Below, one piece after another: positions 12,070 through 32,825 of a stretch of DNA of 51,131 nucleotides (position 1 is the stretch's first letter; every line of letters starts with the position of its first letter). The notes beneath the pieces are model-generated. The model searched no databases. It was not told where the DNA came from and saw only the letters and a program-made list of their open reading frames with translations. The stretch covers positions 138,167 through 189,297 of the forward strand of contig PS015133.1 in NCBI GenBank assembly GCA_048213135.1, given 5' to 3'. A program made the translations under genes and the position numbers. The DNA comes from Reclinomonas americana ATCC 50394. Lineage: Eukaryota.

Positions 12070-12702
12070 TTAGTTGGCCGGGACCTTCTTGGTGCAGGCG
12101 ACGCCGTTGTCGTTCACCCACTTGTTGCAGGTGCAGATGTTGTTGCCGTCGCACTGGCAGTTGGTGTGGCACTTGCACACGCCGTCGACCGACGCCGTAG
12201 CACCGACGCAGTTGCCGTACAGGCCGCACACCTGCTCCTTGCCGAGCTTGCACGGGATCTCAGCCGGCACGCTGCAGTCGGCACCAGTCCAGCCCGGCTT
12301 GCAGGTGCAGGTCAGGTCGGGGTTGCAGTCGCCGTTGCTGGGGCCAGAGCAGTTCTTGGGGCAGTCGTTGCAGGTGCCGTTGGCGTTGGCGACGGGGGCG
12401 TTGTTGGGCGACACGGCGCTCCACTGCAGGGTGCACGGGGTGCCAATGGCGGCGGGGCAAGCGGTGTGGGAAGCCTGGCGGCACTGGTAGTGCGAGCCCC
12501 AGTTGCCGCTGGCGGTCGCCTGGCACTTGCCCGACACACACTTGGCGTTGGAGTCGACGGCCGCACCGGCCGAGTCACGGTAGTTGCCGCCCAGACAATT
12601 GGCGTCGGTGGAACACTTGCCGCCGCCGATAATGGCCGGAGGCGCGGCGAGGGCGAGGGCGAAGAGGGCGGTGAAAGCCACAACGGCGATGATGATCTTC
12701 AT
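12070..12702 (-). CDS. Secreted cysteine-rich protein with tenascin-type EGF-like module, 210 aa, intronless
   Basis: Signal peptide MKIIIAVVAFTALFALALA; EGF-like CPKNCSGPSNGDCNPDLTCTCKPGWTGADCS; strong GC3 bias; TAA stop. Confidence 0.9.
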   Translation of the reverse strand: MKIIIAVVAFTALFALALAAPPAIIGGGKCSTDANCLGGNYRDSAGAAVDSNAKCVSGKCQATASGNWGSHYQCRQASHTACPAAIGTPCTLQWSAVSPNNAPVANANGTCNDCPKNCSGPSNGDCNPDLTCTCKPGWTGADCSVPAEIPCKLGKEQVCGLYGNCVGATASVDGVCKCHTNCQCDGNNICTCNKWVNDNGVACTKKVPAN

Positions 12703-12769
12703 GGTGAGAGAGTGGGTTGGATGGATTGAGGGAAGAGGAGGAGGAGGTTCTCTTGGCTCTTGGAGGGCG

Positions 12770-12810
12770 ATGTGAATGCAGCAGCTTGCAGCACCCTCGG
12801 CTTATATAAT
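12770..12810 (-). promoter_or_regulatory. Putative TATA box and initiator of the EGF-like gene
   Basis: Minus-strand TTATATAAG at 12809-12801 lies about 100 nt upstream of the ATG, with a pyrimidine/CA initiator-like 'GCATTCAC' about 25 nt downstream. Confidence 0.5.
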
Positions 12811-13284
12811 CCGTCATGACCGCGGAATAACTCCCAATCGACGAAAAGCAAACCAAAAAGTTCGGACCTCCTCCGGCTGCCAGGTGATGCAGACGGAGGT
12901 GGTCACTAGATAGTAACGTGCTGTCGCTGCGGTGAGCGTGCAATCGCAGGTGGAGTGGTTTCCTGAGAATCTGATGCAGCAATGCATCCGGAAGATATTG
13001 TTGTATCGATATTCTTCCGGTCAGACGATCTAAGCTGCTGCAGCAGCACCGTATGCTGCCTTATCACCACCGCGAGGGAGTCCATGAAACAGATGACATA
13101 CACAGCAACATGAGATACTGCATGATCACAACGTCGCGATCGAGCTCGTTCGAATTCGCCATGCCGACCGACCGGACTTTTCCCTTCTTTTCTCACCTCT
13201 TCAAGCACACCCTCGATAGCGTGATGACGCACAAAAGCAACTCAATTGAATAGAATTGCTCTCCGTCTTCACCCGCGGGCGAGA

Positions 13285-15519
13285 ATGTTCTTCTCTCCTC
13301 TCGCGCGTGCCATCCAACGCGGCGGTGAGTAAAAGCTTTCCTCTCTCTCTCACTCACTCTCTCTCCCTCCCCTCCCCTTCTCCTCTCTCCCTCTCACTCT
13401 CGCTCACTCACTCACAGGCGGTCCACTCCTTCCCGCAAGCTGTCGTGCATCTCTCCCCGTCTCTCACGCGCCATGGTGATCGTTGTGTCTGTACGTCTCA
13501 TACATGTTCATGTGAGCAGGAGTGTGTGTGCGTGAGCGAGGGAGTTAGTGTGTGTGTGTGCGTGTGTGTGTGAATGGGTGATGAGATTGGATTGTGTAAA
13601 CTCTCCTGAGCTGTTATTTCCATCTCGCAGCCGCGCATTCAGCGCTTCGTCACAGGCGGCACTCGAGCCACTTGACATCACCTCCAGTGAGGTCACTCGC
13701 TCTAGTGAGTCACTCGACGTATTCGAGTCTGTTTCTCTTTCCATTCTCTGTTTTTTCTCATATCCCTCGACACAGACTGGATGGAGAAGCTCATCGCTGC
13801 TATGCGTCGAGCCACTCTGTGGCACATGGATCCCACCACAGATATTCGCACCAAGACCACCGACATCACCTCTGCCACCTACATTGAGCTGGAGGAAGGC
13901 ATGGATTGGCCGGGCATCGACTCGCGCGTTCTCTTTGTGCGCGACTTTTACGACCGCCTCTTCTCGACGTCAATCGGCCTCGGCGGTCTCGATCCCTCTT
14001 GCTCGCGACATAACCTCTCCAAGTTCTACATTACGGGCACTCCTGGCATGTGAGTTGCCGACTCATGTTGCATTTCCCCCCCCTTGCACCATTCTCATGT
14101 ATTCGTCGTGCAGCTCCAAGTCGGCGTTCGGTATGTACGTGCTATACCGAGCGCTGATGGCCAACAAGACGATCTTGCTCTGCCATGGCGACATTCTGAA
14201 ATACAGACCCCACTTGATCGTTGGCGAGCGCGTCTGGGCGTCGTCGACGGAGGGCGCGTTGCTGCAGGCGTATGGGCCTGTCGTCGACTTCTACCTGGCC
14301 GATGGCACCACGCCCGGCAGGTACTCTTTCAAGAGGGTCACAATGTCGCTCCTCATCACCTCGCCGTACCGCCTCCTCTGGAAAGAATTTGCCAAGCATC
14401 ACGCCATTCCTCTGTTCTTCCCGACGTACAGTGCCGAAGAGTTGGAGCTGTTGCGGCGGGTGGCCTTTGCCGAGCAGAGCCCTGAGGAGGTGGCCGAACG
14501 TCACCGCAAGTGGGGCGGGTCGGCACGCGCGGTGCTCACCAGCACTAGTACTAGCTCGGAGGAGCAGCTCGAGTTGGAGTCGGCAGGCGCTGCTTTTCTG
14601 CCTCAGGACCTTGTGCGAGCGGTGCAGCTGGCCCACAACCGTGATGATGACAGTAGTGCTACAATTTCCCTCCGTCTCGTGCATCTCATCGTCAACCGCA
14701 CGAACTTTACGCTGGAGAGTATGGACTTCGCCTCCACCTACGTGGGGATGATGCTGCTCGAGCGGTGGCGCAAGTCGAGTGACCTGGATGCCAAGTTGGT
14801 GCTGTCGCGTCTACAGGCGACGGGCACGATAGCGTCGGTCATGTACGGTCGGGTGTTTGAGGACCATGCCCATGTCGCTTTGGCTGCCGGTGGTCGCTTC
14901 GAGTGCCGCGAGTTGGTGGTCAAGGGTGGTGGCGAGGTGCCGTCGACGGAGATAGAGTTGCCGCCGAGTTGCGTTCTCTCGTACTTTGCTTTGGAGTTAG
15001 TGCGCAGCAGCCGTGCGCTAACTTGGCATCGTCGTGGGTACAGGTATCGAGAAGAAGTTTTCCACCATACAGGAGGTGGCTGCAGCGGCGAACTCTTCGA
15101 ATATCTATTGGCACCCGCAGGCCGGTGCCTTCGCTGCTGTCGACTGCATCATGCACCCAGTCGGTGACAAGCAGGTGTTTGGCAGCATGACGACCAGCAA
15201 CGCCAACCACGACATTATCGCGCTGACGGGGGACGGCAAGGACGGACTGCTGCCCCTCGTGCGCGCCCTTGGCCGTGAGGCGGATGTGGAAATCAAGTTC
15301 TACTGGGTGGTTCCGGCGCACGTGTTTGAGCGAATGCGCACTCCTGGTGACACTGTCCACAACAACAAGCGGAAGAAAGAGGAGGAGGCCGCGACCAAGC
15401 TAGAGGAGGAGCAGAAGGCCGCTGCCAAGCTGGAGGAGGAGCAGAAGGACGTTGCCAAGCTGCGAGCGCAAGTGCGGCAGTTTGTGTTGCGCATTAACGT
15501 AGATCCAACCAAGAGTTAA
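13285..15519 (+). CDS. Crinkler/RHS-type (CR) P-loop NTPase + restriction-endonuclease-fold protein with predicted mitochondrial presequence, 591 aa
   Basis: Exons 13285-13324, 13418-13475, 13631-13704, 13776-14049, 14114-14967 and 15044-15519 total 1776 nt, all in phase. Motifs: LFVRDFYDRL, Walker A ITGTPGISKS, Walker B YLADG, LLITSP, PTYSAEEL, WGGSARAVL, FASTYV, YGRVFEDHAH, YWHP...FAAVDCI, SMTTSNANHDI, FYWVVP, VRQFVLRI. Confidence 0.82.
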
Positions 15520-15986: not shown

Positions 15987-16634
15987 ATGCTCGTTCGTCG
16001 ACTGGCCTCGCTGGTGCACTCGGCAACAACGCGACCGATGCTCGCGTCATCCGCGGCACGGCACTTTGCCTCAGTCGGCGACATGTACTCGCGCGATCAG
16101 TTGCAACATGCGCATCTCTCCCCCCACCATCATCAGCATCATCGTCACCAGCATCAGCACGTGACAAGTGCCACGTGTTCCCGCGCAGTTGTTGATCTGC
16201 TCAGTCCGGCGGGAAACCTCGTGCACACGATTGGTGAGTGAGTGTGATAGAAGTGGAATGCATTCTTGGTAAGTGAGGGATTGTNNNNNNNNNNNNNNNN
16301 NNNNNNNNNNNNNNNNNNNNNNNNNNNNNNNNNNNNNNNNNNNNNNNNNNNNNNNNNNNNNNNNNNNNNNNNNNNNNNNNNNNNNNNNNNNNNNNNNNNN
16401 NNNNNNNNNNNNNNNNNNNNNNNNNNNNNNNNNNNNNNNNNNNNNNNNNNNNNNNNNNNNNNNNNNNNNNNNNNNNNNNNNNNNNNNNNNNNNNNNNNNN
16501 NNNNNNNNNNNNNNNNNNNNNNNNNNNNNNNNNNNNNNNNNNNNNNNNNNNNNNNNNNNNNNNNNNNNNNNNNNNNNNNNNNNNNNNNNNNNNNNNNNNN
16601 NNNNNNNNNNNNCCACGACTACTCGTTCTACGTC

Positions 16635-16690
<56 letters not shown>

Positions 16691-18454
16691 CTCACTGACG
16701 CATACACTGGGAAGTGGGTGATTGTGCAAGACAGTCAACAAGGCGACGAGCAACAACAGTCTCATCAGATGCTGTTCAGTCTCTCCCTCGTCTCTCTCTC
16801 TCACTTACTCTCTCTCTCTCTCTCTCTCTCCCCGTCTGACACGCTCTGAGAAAGGAATGTGCAAGCCAATCACGCAGCCCTTCTTCTTTTCCTTCTCTTC
16901 CTTCTCTTACTCTCCCCCTTTCCCCCCCTGTTGTCCACATCAGACTCGCGCTGGCTTCGCGACCACTGCCGCTGCTCCGAGTGCTTCCACCCGAAAACGC
17001 TGCAGCGACTGGTGGAGACTTTCGATGCCGTGACGCGACCTGTGGAGTGCGAACTGGGTGAATCCTTTGTGTCGTCGACCCCGGCGCTGCGCGTGACGTG
17101 GGCCGACGGGCATCGCAGCGAGTACCCGCTCGACTGGCTGCGCCAGCTGTTGCCTCCGTTCGAGGCCAGTCCGCATGCGCAGCAGTTTGCGCGACTGCTG
17201 GAGGCGGTGCAGCCGAACAACAAGGCCGCGACGTCGACCTCGTATCTGCCGTGTGCGGGCGGTGCGCCGCTGGAGACGCTCCCGGGAGCGCACGAGCAGC
17301 GATTGTGGGTGGCCGCTGATGTGGAGCAGAACCCGCCGACGGTGCGTTACGACGCGTTGATGAGTGACGAGGGCGAGCGCATGCGCTGGCTCCGACTGCT
17401 GCGCCAGTGGGGATTCACGTTTATCGAGGGCACGCCGGCCACACTCGAGGACACTCGTGAGGTTCCGTGTCTTTCTGTGAATGTGTCACTTTCCCCCATT
17501 CCTCACAGTTGCTACAGCTGTGCCTGCGTCTCATGCGTGGCGTGCTGCGTGACTCGCACTACGGAAGCTTCTTTGATGTGACCAACGACCTCAAGTTTGG
17601 CGACACGGCGTACACCAACCTTGGCCTGGGCTTGCACACCGACGGCACGTATTTTAGCGACACTCCTGGCCTGCAGTCGCTGCATGTCATTGAATTCCAG
17701 GGCACGGGTGCCTACAGCACGTTTGGTGAGTGACAATTGCACTCCCTTGTATGCGAGAAGTTGGAGTTGAATGTGCATCGCTGTTTACAAACAGCCGATG
17801 GTTTTGCTGCGGCCGAGGAACTCAAGAGAGCGGCACCGGAGCACTTTGAGGTGCTGGCCACGGTTCCGGTGAGTCCCTCGCGTTGAGTGCATTCTCTCCG
17901 CCCTTCCAGTTCTCATCAGTTGTTGCGCAGGTCCCTTGCCAATACGTCGACGAGCACCAGGTTTGCTCATTGCATGACAGTGACTGTTTGTGTCATTTTC
18001 TCATCGCTCCCCTTGCGTGCAGCACTTTTTGGTGCACGCCCCGGTTCTCTCACTGGATCCGGCCACCGGACAGCTGGTGCAGGTACTCCGCGCCCTCTCT
18101 CCCTCTTTCTCCTTTTCTCTCTCTCTCTCCCTGACTCGCGATGCACAGGTCCGCTACAACAACTACGATCGTGCTCCGCTCTACCATCCCAGCGTGGCCT
18201 CTGTGCGTCGCCTGTACACCGCCCTGAACGCCTACCACGACATTGTGACGAGCCAGAAGGCTGTGTACAAGCTTCAGCTGCTGCCAGGCAGACCCATCAT
18301 CTTTGACAATTGGCGCGTATTGCACGGACGCACCGCGTTCGAGGGACGACGGCGCTTTGTCGGCTGCTACCATCCACGCGACGATTACGTGTCGCAGGTG
18401 CGACGTGCCATGATGGGAATGTCGGCCGGCAAGTCACACGGCACTCGTCAGTGA
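15987..18454 (+). CDS. TMLHE: Trimethyllysine dioxygenase-like (TMLD/BBOX family Fe(II)/2-oxoglutarate dioxygenase; carnitine biosynthesis), mitochondrial
   Basis: Presequence MLVRRLASLVHSATTRPMLASSAARHFAS; Zn-binding WLRDHCRCSECFHPKTLQR and WADGHRSEY; HxD motif HTDGTY; VRYNNYDRA; FDNWRVLHGR. Exon 1 (15987-16233) joins 16944 in phase; about 7 exons. Confidence 0.88.
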
Positions 18455-21400: not shown

Positions 21401-24400
21401 GTAGAGTTACTGTCTCGAGAGAGACGCAACTTGCCACGGTCGCAATCCCATCTCCTCCAGCTTGAGCATGCGCACGGTGGTGTCGTTGAACGACTGGTGG
21501 TAGATATCCAGCGAGTCGCGCAGCGACTTGCCGAGCGCACGCTTGATGGGCACGTAGTTGGCCACCAGCGGCATGCAGATGCCCAACACGATCGGCAACC
21601 ACACCGCAATCGGCTTGAGGTCGAGCTCCCACTTGAGCGCGGCCCAGTCGGCGAGAATCCAATTCACCAGCAGCGAGGTCACGTAGGAGGTGGCCAGACC
21701 GAGGATGATGCCGGGGATGGCCACGAAGAAGGACTGTCGGAGAAGGGGGAGAAGGGGGAGAAGGGGGAGAAGGGGGAGAAGGGGAAGGAGGGGAAGTGTG
21801 AGAGGTAACGATGGTGTCTACGTCTCTCTGTAACAACAACTCTCTGGATCACATCTGCGTCTCTGTGTCAATGCTCTCTGGGTTGCTGCTGTTTCTCTGA
21901 TTTGAGTGTAGCTACTCTCAACGTCACACTGTTTGCTGACATGCTCCTCTCCGTGTCTCACTTGTAGCTCCTCACTGTGTATCGATTGCAAGCTGTGTCC
22001 TTCATCGCTAACTTGCTCTTTCCTGCTCTAGCGTGCCCTATTCGTCTGTGCGTCGTCGACTTTCCGTCTCAGAAGCGATCGTCTCCGTATTTCGCTTGCA
22101 TGTTGGGTCCAACTGCATCGCCCATTATCTCTGTCTCGCTGACTGTCTCGTGTGACATACTCGTCTGTGCGTCGTTGACTTTTCAAATCTGCATCTCTCA
22201 GAAGCGTTCTTCTCGTGTTCTCTTCAGCTTGTCTCTGAATTCAGTTGAATCGCTGTTCTCTAAGTAGTACTGTGCCCATAATCTCTGTCTTGCTCCTCTC
22301 TCTCACACACACACTCTTTGTCAGTCACTCCGTCATCTCACCTCCGAGAAAATAAGCTGGAAGAGAGCCTTGGCGCGCAATCCGAGCGCTCGCAACATGC
22401 CATACTCGTACGTCTTCTCGTCGACCTTGCTGATGAGGAAGGTGAAGATGACGAGACTGCCGAGGGACACCAGCAGAATGACGACGCCCAACAGCAACTG
22501 TAGTAGAAGAGGAGGAGTAATGAAGTGAGCAAGCACCACTATCCATGTGTGTCACGGTCAACGCAACTTGGTCGAGGAACAACTTGAAAAAGTTTACGGC
22601 AAACATGGCCAGTGCCACGGGGAAGGACGGCGTGGCGGGATAATCGTAGCCAACGTGCTCGTACACCTCGTTCGAGAGCTGGATCATGCGCTGATCCATC
22701 TGCAGCTGCTCGGTCATGTAGCCGCTGAGGCGCTCCTTCCATTGCACCACCGATAACAGGGCGAACTCCTGTCAATGGGAGGAGCGGTGTGAGAAGGAAG
22801 TGGGGAGGGAATGGGAGAAGAGGGAGGGGAAAGAGGGAAAGAGTCAAGGTGAAGAGACGCGGAGTGAAGAGACGCAGAGTGGAAGGACGCAGCGAAGGAA
22901 GACGCACTGGGGATAGAGAAGAGAGGGGAAACGCAGAGTCTCGATTAAATTAAGGATGTCGTTTCCGCTTCTCACCTCCATGCGGAAGTTGTTAAACACC
23001 GGGTCGAGTAAACTGTTCACCGTGAGACCCAATGCCGGCAGCAGCGGGGCGAACTGCGAGTTGATGATAACGCGCTCAAAGTGCGCGCGGACGAGCGCCG
23101 GCAAGTAATGCCAATCCATGACCGCCACGTTGCCGATTGCACCCGGGTATCGATTGTATGTGTCCTCGATGCCGTTGACGACTGTGTCGATAGAGTGAGC
23201 ACGAGATAAAAACTGAAAAACCGAACAGGAATGCGAAGACACTGCGGCACAGGCATAGCTGCGGATGACAGGCGCACAAGCTGGCGCACTCGACTGTGCA
23301 CAGGGATTTCTTGCTTTCTCCTTCTCTTCTCTCTCCCTCTCTCCTCTTTGTCTCTCTCCTTCTCTCTCTCTATTTCTCTCCTTTCTATCTGTCGCTCTCT
23401 TTCTCTCTCTCTCTATTTCTCTTCTATCTTTCATGCTCGCTTTCTCCGTCCCTCTCTCTCCTTCCCCCTCTATCTCTACCCTTCCCCCCTCCACACACAC
23501 ACGCCTTTCACCGTGCCCTGCACATCCAGCAAATCCAAAAACGTGGGATAAAAGAGATCAAACAGCTGATTGTAGGTGATCTTGCGGAATTGAGGGGGAA
23601 TTCCTGCAGCACACAGGCGTGAGGAGTTAGTTGTGCAATCCGCACGCGCCACGCCAAAATTCGGCGCAACTGGAATCGGTAATATTGAGCGGCACTTGTG
23701 CATTCCAGTCGGTGATGTTGAGGAAGGACGCAATCAAGTCACGCGCCGCGGACTCGCTCGGCACTCCAGTCACACCGGCGCCAGTGGCTGCGGCGGTCAA
23801 CTGTGGACCCGCCAACCGCAGTGCAAGCTGGTCGATCGGCAACTTGAGCGTGACCTTTTGCTTCTCCTTGATGCCGACGGTGCGCAGTGCGGTGGCAGTG
23901 AGGTGCATTTCGTACTCGTCGAGCACGGGGTACGGCCATTCGCGACCGATGCGCAAGTCCTGCGAGTCGCAAAAGAGTGTGTGAGGCTTGCATGAGAGAG
24001 ATATGGGGATAGACGGCAGCCCACAATACCTCTTCGCGCGCCGTGTCCATGGGAAGCAGGAGGAGACTGATGTTGCGCATGGCGTCTCGCTGATTCAGGA
24101 CGACGGCCGGGAGCAGCCAGCGTGGGGTGGTTCCGTTCACCGGAGCCAGGCCAGTCATACTCTGTCGCATGCATGAGGAGGGGGAGAAGGGAGAAGGGAG
24201 AGATGTCCTCTGGTGTCACGCAACTCGTTCCAACTGCGTCTGGTTGAGGAAGGGTAGGGCGGTGAGGCTCGAGGTGGAGTCGGGGGTGAGCACCTGCGAT
24301 GTTTGTGAGGCGAAGGTGGGAAGAGTGGGTGGAGGAATAAGACGCAACAATGTCCAGCTCGCCGGCCGTGTTTTCGCCGAGCTTGAAGAAGATGACGGGG

Positions 24401-30141: not shown

Positions 30142-32825
30142 ATGCCGCCAACGATTCGCGTGCGGTTTATCGATGAGCAGACGAGAGAGAAGCGGAGGAT
30201 TGTGCGAGGTGAGGGAAAAAAAGAGAATGTGTGTGTGTTTTTTCCGAGTCTGAGTTTGTGTGTGAGAGTGAGAGTGTATGTGAGAGAGAGGAAAGTGCGA
30301 AGTAATTGATAAAGTCTGTCTTCCAAATCATCACTCTTCTCACTCAGTTTCTCTTCTTCTTCTCCCTCCTCTCTCTCTCTCTCCCAACCCACCCACTCAT
30401 CCTTCTTTTTCCACCAGGCGACAAACGATCATCGGAGCAACTAGTTGCCGCCGGACCACGCGTTTCATTCTACGAATCCGCTCTCTGCAATGCCGACCCC
30501 ACATTCGCCCATCGCGTGGAATACCCAAAGGACCCAGCAAATCCTGGTGAGTCATTCCCTTGAGCGTCTCATTTGCTCTCACTGTTCCATTCTTCTCTTC
30601 CTCTTTTCTCTTCTTTTCCATGCCGCTTACTGTCTCTCCTTCTGTCTCTCCCTCCCTCCCTCTCTCTATCTACCTATCTATCTATCTATCTCTCTCTCTC
30701 TCTCTATCTCTCGTTCTCCGCCTTGTTCGCATACCTCACTCTGCCTCTTTCTCTTTCTCTCCACCCTCCCTTGCCCTCTCACTCACCCTTCTCCTTCATC
30801 TCACTCGCCCGTCCCCCTTTCCCCCTTTTTCAGGCGCCCGCCCGGAACCCCTCCACCCCCCAGAACCCGGCGAAACCTTCACCGACGAGGAGATTTGCCT
30901 GTTTCGACCGGAACTCGGCGAACCGCTGTGCGGCTCCATCGAGGTCTCCTACGGCAAGTCGCTGGCGCACGAGGGCATTGTGGTGGCGGTGGTCGGGCAA
31001 ATCCGTGAGTGCACACCGATGTCCACCCCCACCCCTTCTCGTGCGACACTCACCATACGCGCAGTGGTGAGCTTTGTGCAACCGGAAAAGCACCACTTTT
31101 TGGTGTCGGAGGCCACCGTGGCGCAACCTGGTCAGCTCCCGGCCGGTGTCTCCACGATACCTTTCGAGGTGAAACCGCCGGAGCTACCGTACGACTCGTA
31201 CGTTGGGGCGGATGTGGTGTTGAGATATTTTGTGCGCGTGCAAATCAAGCGGAAGCGCTCGAGCGACATTTATCACGAGCAGGACTTTTGGGTGGAGAAC
31301 CTAGGCATGCGCTCCTCCGATGTGCCGATCGACGACTCGCTGCAGAGTGCGCGGCAGGTGGATGTGGGCATCGAGGGGTATCTGCACATTGTGTTTGAGT
31401 TTGACAAGACCTGGTGAGTGGCAGGGGGGGAAGGGAGAGAGGGAGACAGGGTAGACAGGGGAAGGAGAGGTTTGTTAGCTTGCTCTTACGGATAGAGGTG
31501 CAGTCTCATGTTAGTGGCAGAGCAAAGCTGGTACTTTGCAGAGATGTGATATCTATCGAGAGGAGAATCAGAAAGGCTTTCGCTTTGCTGGTGGGAAGGA
31601 GCGCTCTCATGTTTGTGTGGTGGTGAAGATGAGATTGAGTTTGAATGATTTAGGCGCTGTGCATGCGCGTGTGAGAGAGAGATCGAGTGAATGTTTCTTT
31701 CGCTTGCCAGCCATAATGCAGGCTTGTTCATGCCCGCCGTGTCGCTGTCATCTTTGCTCCAGCTAAACTCTCGCGTAATGGATACTCCGCATGCATACAG
31801 TTCTCATCCGCTTGCTGCTCTTCTCCAGGTACCATCTCAACGACGTCATTCTTGGTCAAGTCTTCTTTGCACAAGTACACCTCCCGATCGACCAAATGTT
31901 CATCACAGTTGAGTGCGCCCTGTGCTTTCGCTTCTATATTTTTTTATATCGCTCTCCATTTCAATGCCTTCTCTCGTGTGCCTTCCCCATTCGGTTCTCC
32001 TGTGCTCTCTGGTGTCGCCCTACCGCTTTCGTGCATGTATGTTTCATCGCTTCACTCTCCACTATTCGCTTTCCTTCACTCCACCCCTCCTTTCTCTGTT
32101 CCTCTCCCCTCCCTCTTCAACTTCTTCTCCCTCACCTTCTCTCTACTTCTCTCTCTTTCTGTCTCCCACTTTCCATTCCTTCCCCTTTCTTCTTCTTCCG
32201 TGCGTTTTCCTCGCTTCAGTTCTCTTGTGGTCTCTTTCCCTCAACTTTTCGCTTCCCTTCACTCCACCCCTCATCCTCTTCTCTGTTCCTCTCCCTCTAC
32301 TTCTCCCTCTCCTTCTCTCTACTTCTCCCGCTTTCATTGTCACCCATCCCTTTCTCCTTCTTCCATGCGCTTTCCTCGCTTCAGTTCTTTTGTGATCTCT
32401 TTCCCTCCACTCTTTGCTGTCCGTCACTCCCCCTCTCCTTTCTCCGTCCTCTTCTCTTTTCGTCTCTCAATCTTCCTCTCTCCCTCACCTTCCGTCTTTC
32501 CCTTCCCCCTCCCCTCCCTTCCCCCTCCTTCCCCCCCCCCTTCCCACAGATGGTCCGCAAGGAAATCTGCGGCTCGGGCCCCACCGACGTCACCGAAACC
32601 ACCATGCTGGCCTCGTCGGAGCTCATGGACGGATTCCCGGGCGAGGGCGACAATGTACCGGTGCGCTTCTTCTTAAAGCCGGTGTTCAGCCTGACACCGA
32701 CCTTTGTCAACGTGCACAATGTGTACTCGGTGCGCTACTTTATCAACCTGGTGCTCATCGACACCGAGAATCGCAAGTTCTTCAAGCAGCACGAGGTGTA
32801 CCTGTATCGCGAGCGGCCCGGGTGA
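30142..32825 (+). CDS. VPS26: Retromer subunit VPS26 (arrestin fold), divergent, with an N-terminal insertion
   Basis: [68 protein letters not shown] and LTPTFVNVHNVYSVRYFINLVLIDTENRKFFKQHEVYLYR match VPS26. Six exons join in phase. Confidence 0.93.
32065..32407. repeat. About 180-bp tandem duplication in the last VPS26 intron
   Basis: TTCGCTT(T/C)CCTTCACTCCACCCCTC...TTTCCTCGCTTCAGTTCT(C/T)TTGTG(G/A)TCTCTTTCCCTC occurs twice. Confidence 0.8.

Follow-up and report, generated by a model that had tools for sequence, protein, structure and literature searches.

The window analysed here (51,131 nucleotides of Reclinomonas americana ATCC 50394, GenBank assembly GCA_048213135.1, contig PS015133.1, positions 138,167 to 189,297 of the forward strand; all positions below are counted within it) carries on its + strand, at 13285-15519, a gene whose product was assigned to the Crinkler/RHS (CR) type of proteins. 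In the favoured reading, to which a probability of roughly 0.55 was given, translation starts at ATG 13781 and yields a headerless CR-type protein, the exons further upstream are untranslated or form a young, unselected extension, and the protein acts in the cytosol or the nucleus. The original prediction, made from the DNA letters, had proposed a 591-residue protein in which a mitochondrial presequence takes the place of the family's N-terminal header. The conserved protein would comprise about 532 residues encoded by exons 4-6 of a nuclear, intron-containing gene, with the domains in the order STAND/AAA+-like P-loop nucleoside triphosphatase (NTPase), helical/winged-helix linker, restriction-endonuclease (REase)-type domain. 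The family and the domain order are already known, and the gene adds another member.

The gene formed by exons 4-6 (13776-15519, +) is real, as judged by homology at the sequence level. A profile was built from 40 relatives, and the product of each of these exons was matched to it. Residues 24-90 of exon 4 fell on profile positions 17-77 (expect value, E = 3.8e-14), residues 2-284 of exon 5 on positions 80-349 (E = 1.4e-63), and residues 3-152 of exon 6 on positions 353-474 (E = 8.3e-23). Between the pieces 2 and 3 profile positions were left, which correspond to the residues spanning the junctions; exons 4-6 and introns 4 and 5 were thus validated by homology, including the weak donor GTTGCG at 14968. 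Exon 4 (13776-14049, +) contains ATG 13781 at the start of the family core, the LFVRDFY block and the first half of the Walker A motif (14036-14049). Intron 4 (14050-14113, +) splits this motif, and its second half (14114-14123) opens exon 5 (14114-14967, +), so that Walker A reads G-T-P-G-I-S-K-S across the exon 4/5 junction. The Walker B Asp and the WGG..R block belong to exon 5 too, as do the helical/winged-helix linker and the part of the nuclease-type domain that comprises its first helix and strands (Glu codon at 14859-14861). The remainder of that domain is carried by exon 6 (15044-15519, +), with Asp at 15142-15144, Thr at 15193-15195, His at 15208-15210, the FYWVVP strand and the stop codon TAA at 15517-15519. 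Six relatives taken from intron-blind gene calls (P0056, P0069, P0103, P0107, P0119 and P0128) have an unrelated start that runs into '(A/G)KS(A/V)FG', which suggests an intron at the same Walker A position in their genomes.

Within exon 6 a lineage-specific loop insertion was located at 15367-15462 (+). It begins with K-R-K-K (15367-15378), and this is adjoined by an in-frame 30-nucleotide coding tandem repeat of 2.3 copies (15379-15462) encoding a K-L-E-E-E-Q-K motif; the loop varies in length among relatives. The K-R-K-K run resembles a nuclear localisation signal and may point to the nucleus. It fits the localisation of Crinklers, which is described as nuclear (PMC5353544, PMC5289972).

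Family membership was established by homology searches. In Pfam, no match was returned for the products of exon 4 or exon 5, and the two matches for exon 6 were sub-threshold. A word-indexed protein search with exon 5, restricted to longer proteins, gave none at E ≤ 0.001 among 8,000 candidates. The full phmmer scan with exon 5 returned 465 relatives at E ≤ 0.001, of which 71 reached E ≤ 1e-10; the best of them was 38% identical. The Crinkler N-terminal domain (PF20147) was present in 4 of the 150 best relatives; these Crinkler-headed proteins (P0011, which is a Hyaloperonospora protein, P0018, P0021 and P0044) matched exon 5 with E values of 2.2e-15 to 1.7e-12, and each carried PF20147 above the Pfam cut-off. 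A relative from Volvox reticuliferus (P0184) is named 'Crinkler (CRN) family protein' in UniRef. As a lead, those of the nearest language-model clusters that ranked 2, 3 and 17 had PF07999 (RHSP) in 16%, 12% and 64% of their members, respectively. Sub-threshold Pfam matches among the 40 relatives were to nSTAND3 (36), KaiC (15), RHSP (7) and DAP3 (1); the RHSP matches (E ≤ 1) had a best E of 0.055 and all lay under the Pfam threshold. The earlier assignment to an NTPase plus nuclease-fold module of Crinkler/RHS type was accordingly upheld through homology and models of relatives, not through Pfam, and it holds, on this footing, for the C-terminal 532 residues (exons 4-6) as a predicted NTPase-linker-nuclease module. 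No N-terminal header, whether ubiquitin-like/Crinkler or helical, was found: exon 4 has no Pfam match, the core starts at ATG 13781, and the 59-residue stretch encoded further upstream, judged without a scan of its own, is too short for a header domain and low in complexity.

Structural tests were run on models of two relatives, P0013 and P0065, and not on the gene's own spliced protein. The model of P0013, a headerless relative 541 residues long (predicted local distance difference test score, pLDDT, 85.5; predicted template modelling score, pTM, 0.72), showed an alpha/beta domain with a P-loop, a linker that is helical and winged-helix-like, and a C-terminal domain of alpha/beta type. With Foldseek, the N-terminal half matched ClpA (E = 1.5e-5), followed by AVAST5, RPP1, RuvB, MuB and CED-4, which are AAA+ or STAND proteins. 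With an exhaustive aligner, the NTPase domain (residues 11-219) was matched at ranks 1-3 by mS29/DAP3, which is the P-loop protein in the small subunit of mitochondrial ribosomes (Z = 9.9, 9.6 and 9.3, with 183-196 residues aligned; root-mean-square deviation 4.6 over 187 residues for the top match). These matches may point to a specific relationship between CR NTPases and mS29.

A divergent mS29/DAP3 would account for both a presequence and the NTPase fold. Seven of the 50 matches listed for the NTPase domain were mS29, from seven mitoribosome entries (Z = 8.3-9.9), and a profile search of solved structures returned mS29 at E = 0.15, over the Walker A region only. These structural matches were nevertheless tied, within 1 Z, with Pex1/6 (Z = 9.3) and other AAA+ and STAND proteins. 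Pfam DAP3 (PF10236) matched none of the three exon products at E ≤ 1, and its one match among the 40 relatives had an E of 0.049. The family also includes Crinkler-headed members and several paralogs per genome, and the 200-residue nuclease-type domain lies outside the mS29 alignments. Identity with mS29/DAP3 was therefore dismissed as highly implausible, there being no significant sequence match and no mS29 counterpart of the nuclease-type domain. The original prediction had named, as an outcome that would count against it, placement in a known mitochondrial P-loop family such as DAP3 with no REase fold; DAP3 was not the placement found, and that outcome did not arise.

The last domain was studied in P0065, a natural fragment made up of the linker and the last domain only (pLDDT 92.8, pTM 0.90). 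Foldseek returned no match for this C-terminal fragment at E ≤ 0.001. In the exhaustive search, 30 of the 50 matches listed covered the last domain, and 27 of these 30 were nucleases by title. The 30 comprised 16 restriction/modification enzymes (BspD6I twice, LlaBIII, SdaI, SgrAI, McrBC, Cfr10I, Bse634I, FokI, PspGI, Ecl18kI, BstYI, EcoP15I, EcoRII, NgoMIV and HindIII), 11 further entries that are or contain nucleases (CdiA-CT, Card1, Can1, Can2 and related entries, Cdn1, NucS, an excision factor, DdmD and LmuAB), and 3 that were neither. The scores were low (Z ≤ 5.2 throughout, obtained on the relative), and the matches are consistent with a REase-type fold while supporting it weakly. The Glu and Asp of the nuclease motif are conserved in the family and present in the gene. 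At the third motif the family reads (Q/N)-x-T and then His, the gene S/M-x-T and then His, and the lysine of the canonical (D/E)xK is absent from the nuclease motif family-wide. Nuclease activity is for this reason an inference.

A number of family-conserved residues are retained. Both the Walker A Lys and the Walker B Asp fall in columns that do not vary among the 40 relatives, and the Arg of WGG..R was also kept, as were Glu, Asp, Thr, His and Pro in the last domain; D33, T50 and P90 of exon 6 were invariant in 30 sequences. Three positions have changed. The gene has Ser where the family has Gly before the Walker A Lys (G-x-x-G-x-S-K-S vs. G-x-x-G-x-G-K-S/T), as does 1 of 150 relatives; Ser or Met stands in for the Asn/Gln that precedes the invariant Thr by two residues; and the first His of the SHRLLH block is Leu. 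These substitutions could mark a decaying or catalytically dead member, limited to binding or on its way to becoming a pseudogene. Such a state was judged improbable, given the retained residues and a 532-codon frame that is intact over three exons with a strong coding codon bias.

The 591-residue model was rebuilt from the sequence. Six + strand exons, all bounded by GT..AG, were joined into one open frame of 591 codons, and the length and the in-phase joining of three small 5' exons were reproduced as originally proposed. Putative exon 1 (13285-13324, +) starts at ATG 13285, which has A at -3 and is the first start of its frame, since an in-frame stop lies upstream at 13225-13227; its donor is GTGAGT at 13325, and its codon usage is non-coding-like. 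Putative exon 2 (13418-13475, +) follows an acceptor ...CACAG at 13417 and ends at a weaker donor, GTGATC at 13476, directly after which stands an in-frame TGA. Putative exon 3 (13631-13704, +) encodes an R-x-F-S site and ends at donor GTGAGT 13705. In its region a 17-nucleotide tandem duplication (13682-13716) creates a second donor-like site at 13688, which is out of phase. Intron 3 (13705-13775, +) combines a GTGAGT donor with a pyrimidine tract, and some 15 nucleotides ahead of its CAG acceptor lies the heptamer TTCTCAT. The same heptamer stands about 15 nucleotides before the acceptor of the homology-validated intron 4. Intron 3 is probably real, and if it is taken as such, some upstream exon exists.

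In-phase splicing was rejected as evidence in itself, because 72,139 open in-phase GT-AG chains are possible upstream of exon 4 when splice-site quality is ignored. Quality was considered separately. Between 12850 and 13775 there are only two GT[AG]AGT donors (13325 and 13705) and only three YAG acceptors with a pyrimidine tract (13417, 13630 and 13775), and all five are used by the model. With those sites fixed, 30 GT sites were tried as donor of intron 2; 11 were in phase, and 13476 alone left the frame open. CT-rich tracts like that of intron 1 are common in this genome, which counts against the upstream exons.

The make-up of the predicted extension is that of a presequence, being acid-free, Arg-rich, hydroxylated and amphipathic with an R-3 site. 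R-x-(F/L/Y)-S is the R-3 mitochondrial processing motif. The first 44 residues contain no Asp or Glu, 4 Arg, 7 Ser/Thr and 9 Ala, with R-x-F-S from residue 34, and an 11-residue window at residues 2-12 had a helical hydrophobic moment of 0.82, which is strongly amphipathic. The residue counts and the site thus agreed with the original description of an acid-free, Arg-rich N-terminus. As controls, 417 ATG-started open 57-residue peptides of the window were examined; 19 were acid-free with at least 4 basic residues, and 5 were acid-free, basic and also carried R-x-[FYL]-[SA].

Codon usage separated the extension from the core. The training set consisted of 1,246 homology-supported codons from 6 genes, and synonymous log-odds per codon were used as a measure independent of amino-acid content. 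GC content at third codon positions (GC3) was 0.61 in the extension vs. 0.78 in the homology-supported codons. The extension scored -0.136 per codon, with both halves negative, and lay under all 76 leave-one-out coding windows of the same length (minimum = -0.045, median = 0.20) and close to the median of stop-free windows overall (-0.18, n = 524). The first 59 codons from ATG 13781 scored +0.32, and the same value was obtained for the opening 59 codons of an independent neighbouring gene, which include its signal peptide. The extension looks like non-coding frames, and coding bias begins at ATG 13781. Among the arguments against the extension being coding, this one was given the most weight.

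The starts of related proteins were also compared. In the profile of 40 relatives, the conserved core begins at ATG 13781. Of 76 complete relatives (Met start and N-terminal core present), 42 had an extension of fewer than 20 residues, 32 had other extensions and 2 had an acid-free basic start. The nearest relatives (28-32% identity) mostly begin 10-35 residues before the LPxGxxWP block, with a translation start that corresponds to ATG 13781. The idea that a header was replaced by a presequence was not supported, as stated, by this comparison: extension-free forms are the majority, the nearest relatives start at the core, and, as headerless forms are common among relatives, a missing header needs no replacement event. 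Arg-rich leaders were seen in a few proteins. Two Volvox reticuliferus paralogs (P0181 and P0187) have a very Arg-rich leader followed by KKLEDxE coiled-coil repeats, and in a metagenomic cluster (P0149/P0160/P0162) a long, nearly acid-free Arg/Ala/Pro-rich leader precedes a ubiquitin-like header. Both kinds of leader may be read-through of untranslated regions or nucleolar signals.

Several of these results weigh against a headerless CR enzyme that starts at ATG 13781. On the side of the enzyme they are the low Z values of the last domain and their origin in a relative, the missing (D/E)xK lysine, and the Walker A Ser. On the side of the start, the upstream chain takes every one of the strongest splice signals, and its frame, which starts at a well-placed ATG, stays open and in phase; the chance of such a chain arising from an untranslated leader was put at about 5-10%, by our own estimate and not by computation. 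Scanning ribosomes should initiate at ATG 13285 if the mRNA includes it, and ATG 13781 has T at -3. The presequence make-up is textbook, with so few controls matching it in full, and the codon test used a small training set and may miss a recently gained presequence, which need not show bias.

In the rival account, which follows the original prediction, exons 1-3 encode protein and the extension of 59 residues serves as a presequence that is cleaved after targeting to an organelle, the mitochondrion or, if the organism has one, a plastid; a CR-type NTPase-nuclease would then be imported and act on organellar nucleic acid. Besides the open in-phase GT-AG chain on the two best donors and three best acceptors and the R-x-F-S-bearing, amphipathic, acid-free start, the Arg-rich leaders of P0181, P0187 and P0149/P0160/P0162 speak for it. 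Its difficulties are the non-coding-like codon usage of the extension; the 19 acid-free basic peptides obtained from translated GC-rich non-coding DNA of the window; nearest relatives that lack such an extension, with acid-free basic starts in only 2 of 76, perhaps as read-through of untranslated leaders; the donor-like site at 13688, use of which would break the frame; and the C-terminal K-R-K-K, which points to the nucleus. On balance an organellar address was considered possible but unlikely. Of the claim of a mitochondrial address, the presequence-like make-up and the use of the best splice sites stood; the codon usage and the beginning of the core at ATG 13781 went against it.

An N-terminal extension could also be translated without targeting the protein, either as a disordered tail or in a shorter form from ATG 13581 if the transcript starts inside 'intron 2'. 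The exon 3 frame is open back to 13536 and contains ATG 13581 in frame, and the real appearance of intron 3 requires an upstream exon. The codon-usage objection holds here too, and little credence was given to this arrangement.

In the favoured account, the upstream exons are most likely 5' untranslated, or else a recent unselected extension. On this reading the protein would act in the cytosol or nucleus and not in the mitochondrion. By analogy with what has been proposed for CR proteins, DNA binding or cleavage by the nuclease domain would be under the control of the NTPase.

The gene lies among housekeeping genes (VPS13, Vps26, a galactosyltransferase and a butyrobetaine-hydroxylase-like gene). 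No paralogs were found within the 51,131-nucleotide window by tblastn with the three exon products, and no terminal inverted repeats or transposon frame were found around the gene. The window holds 11 N runs (2,926 bases in total). The product of the divergent neighbour at 12073-12801 (-) is Cys-rich, begins in the manner of a signal peptide and shows a teneurin-type EGF match (E = 3.5e-5) that falls slightly short of the Pfam cut-off; the codon bias of this neighbour is very strong (GC3 = 0.91). The downstream gene at 16850-18451 (+) encodes a GBBH-like N-domain and a TauD dioxygenase domain, which makes it similar to butyrobetaine or trimethyllysine hydroxylase; an N gap (16285-16612) and CT microsatellites obscure where it starts at the 5' side. 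For an open frame at 21410-21817 (-), the match to an FtsX-like permease stayed under the threshold (E = 3.9e-5, 24.1 bits vs. a cut-off of 25.5); such a match is unusual in a eukaryotic nuclear region. A CT-rich intron longer than 1 kb interrupts the Vps26 gene at 30551-32822 (+), so that introns of this genome differ greatly in length.

CR proteins are best known as effectors that pathogens direct to the nucleus and as proteins derived from transposons. A headerless, intron-containing copy among housekeeping genes adds evidence that the module is widely kept for free-living eukaryotes' own use. A genuine presequence would make this the first CR enzyme with an organellar address and a candidate for organellar DNA degradation or conflict, with possible roles in organellar DNA elimination, defence against organellar selfish elements, or cell death. 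Organellar targeting could then recur in the family, as the two Volvox paralogs and the one metagenomic cluster have Arg-rich, transit-peptide-like leaders. A further lesson of the case is that GC-rich leaders, once translated, can look like presequences, and that a simple test of synonymous codons is able to expose the resemblance.

In comparison with known systems, literature searches on Crinklers combined with organelle targeting or green algae listed no paper about an organelle-targeted CR protein. NTPase plus helix-turn-helix (HTH) plus REase is the commonest Crinkler C-terminus according to Zhang et al. 2016, as relayed in PMC5289972; there the REase is proposed to carry toxicity and the NTPase to regulate it, and headerless members are described in free-living eukaryotes (PMC5289972). 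Content of the 2016 study is also relayed in PMC11064341. Oomycete CRN effectors with this C-terminus (e.g., the Hyaloperonospora protein P0011) share a homologous module in the same domain order. The gene differs from them in having no Crinkler/ubiquitin-like header, an identity of about 30% or less, introns, and Ser for Gly in Walker A, and a possible presequence stands where they have the translocation header. The likeness to trypanosomatid RHS proteins (PF07999) consists of the RHSP shares of the clusters and the 7 of 40 relatives with sub-threshold matches, with no match at the Pfam threshold. mS29/DAP3 gave the best structural match to the family's NTPase domain, tied with AAA+/STAND proteins, and has no counterpart of the nuclease-type domain. 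PD-(D/E)xK nucleases (R.BspD6I, SdaI, SgrAI, Cfr10I, McrC, Card1 and Can2) were the only consistent structural matches of the last domain. As in that fold, the family has Glu on the first helix and Asp at a strand start, but the matches stay at Z ≤ 5.2, the third motif is (Q/N)-x-T then His rather than (D/E)-x-K, and catalysis is only predicted. The closest proteins are headerless relatives from marine or freshwater metagenomes or metatranscriptomes (P0013, P0014, P0032, P0041, P0169 and others) and Volvox P0184, which match all three exons at 28-32% identity, are of the same length and share the LPxGxxWP...LFVRDFY block. P0013, P0014, P0032, P0041, P0169 and P0184 start at the core, without the 59-residue extension, and the K-R-K-K and repeat insertion is specific to the Reclinomonas gene.

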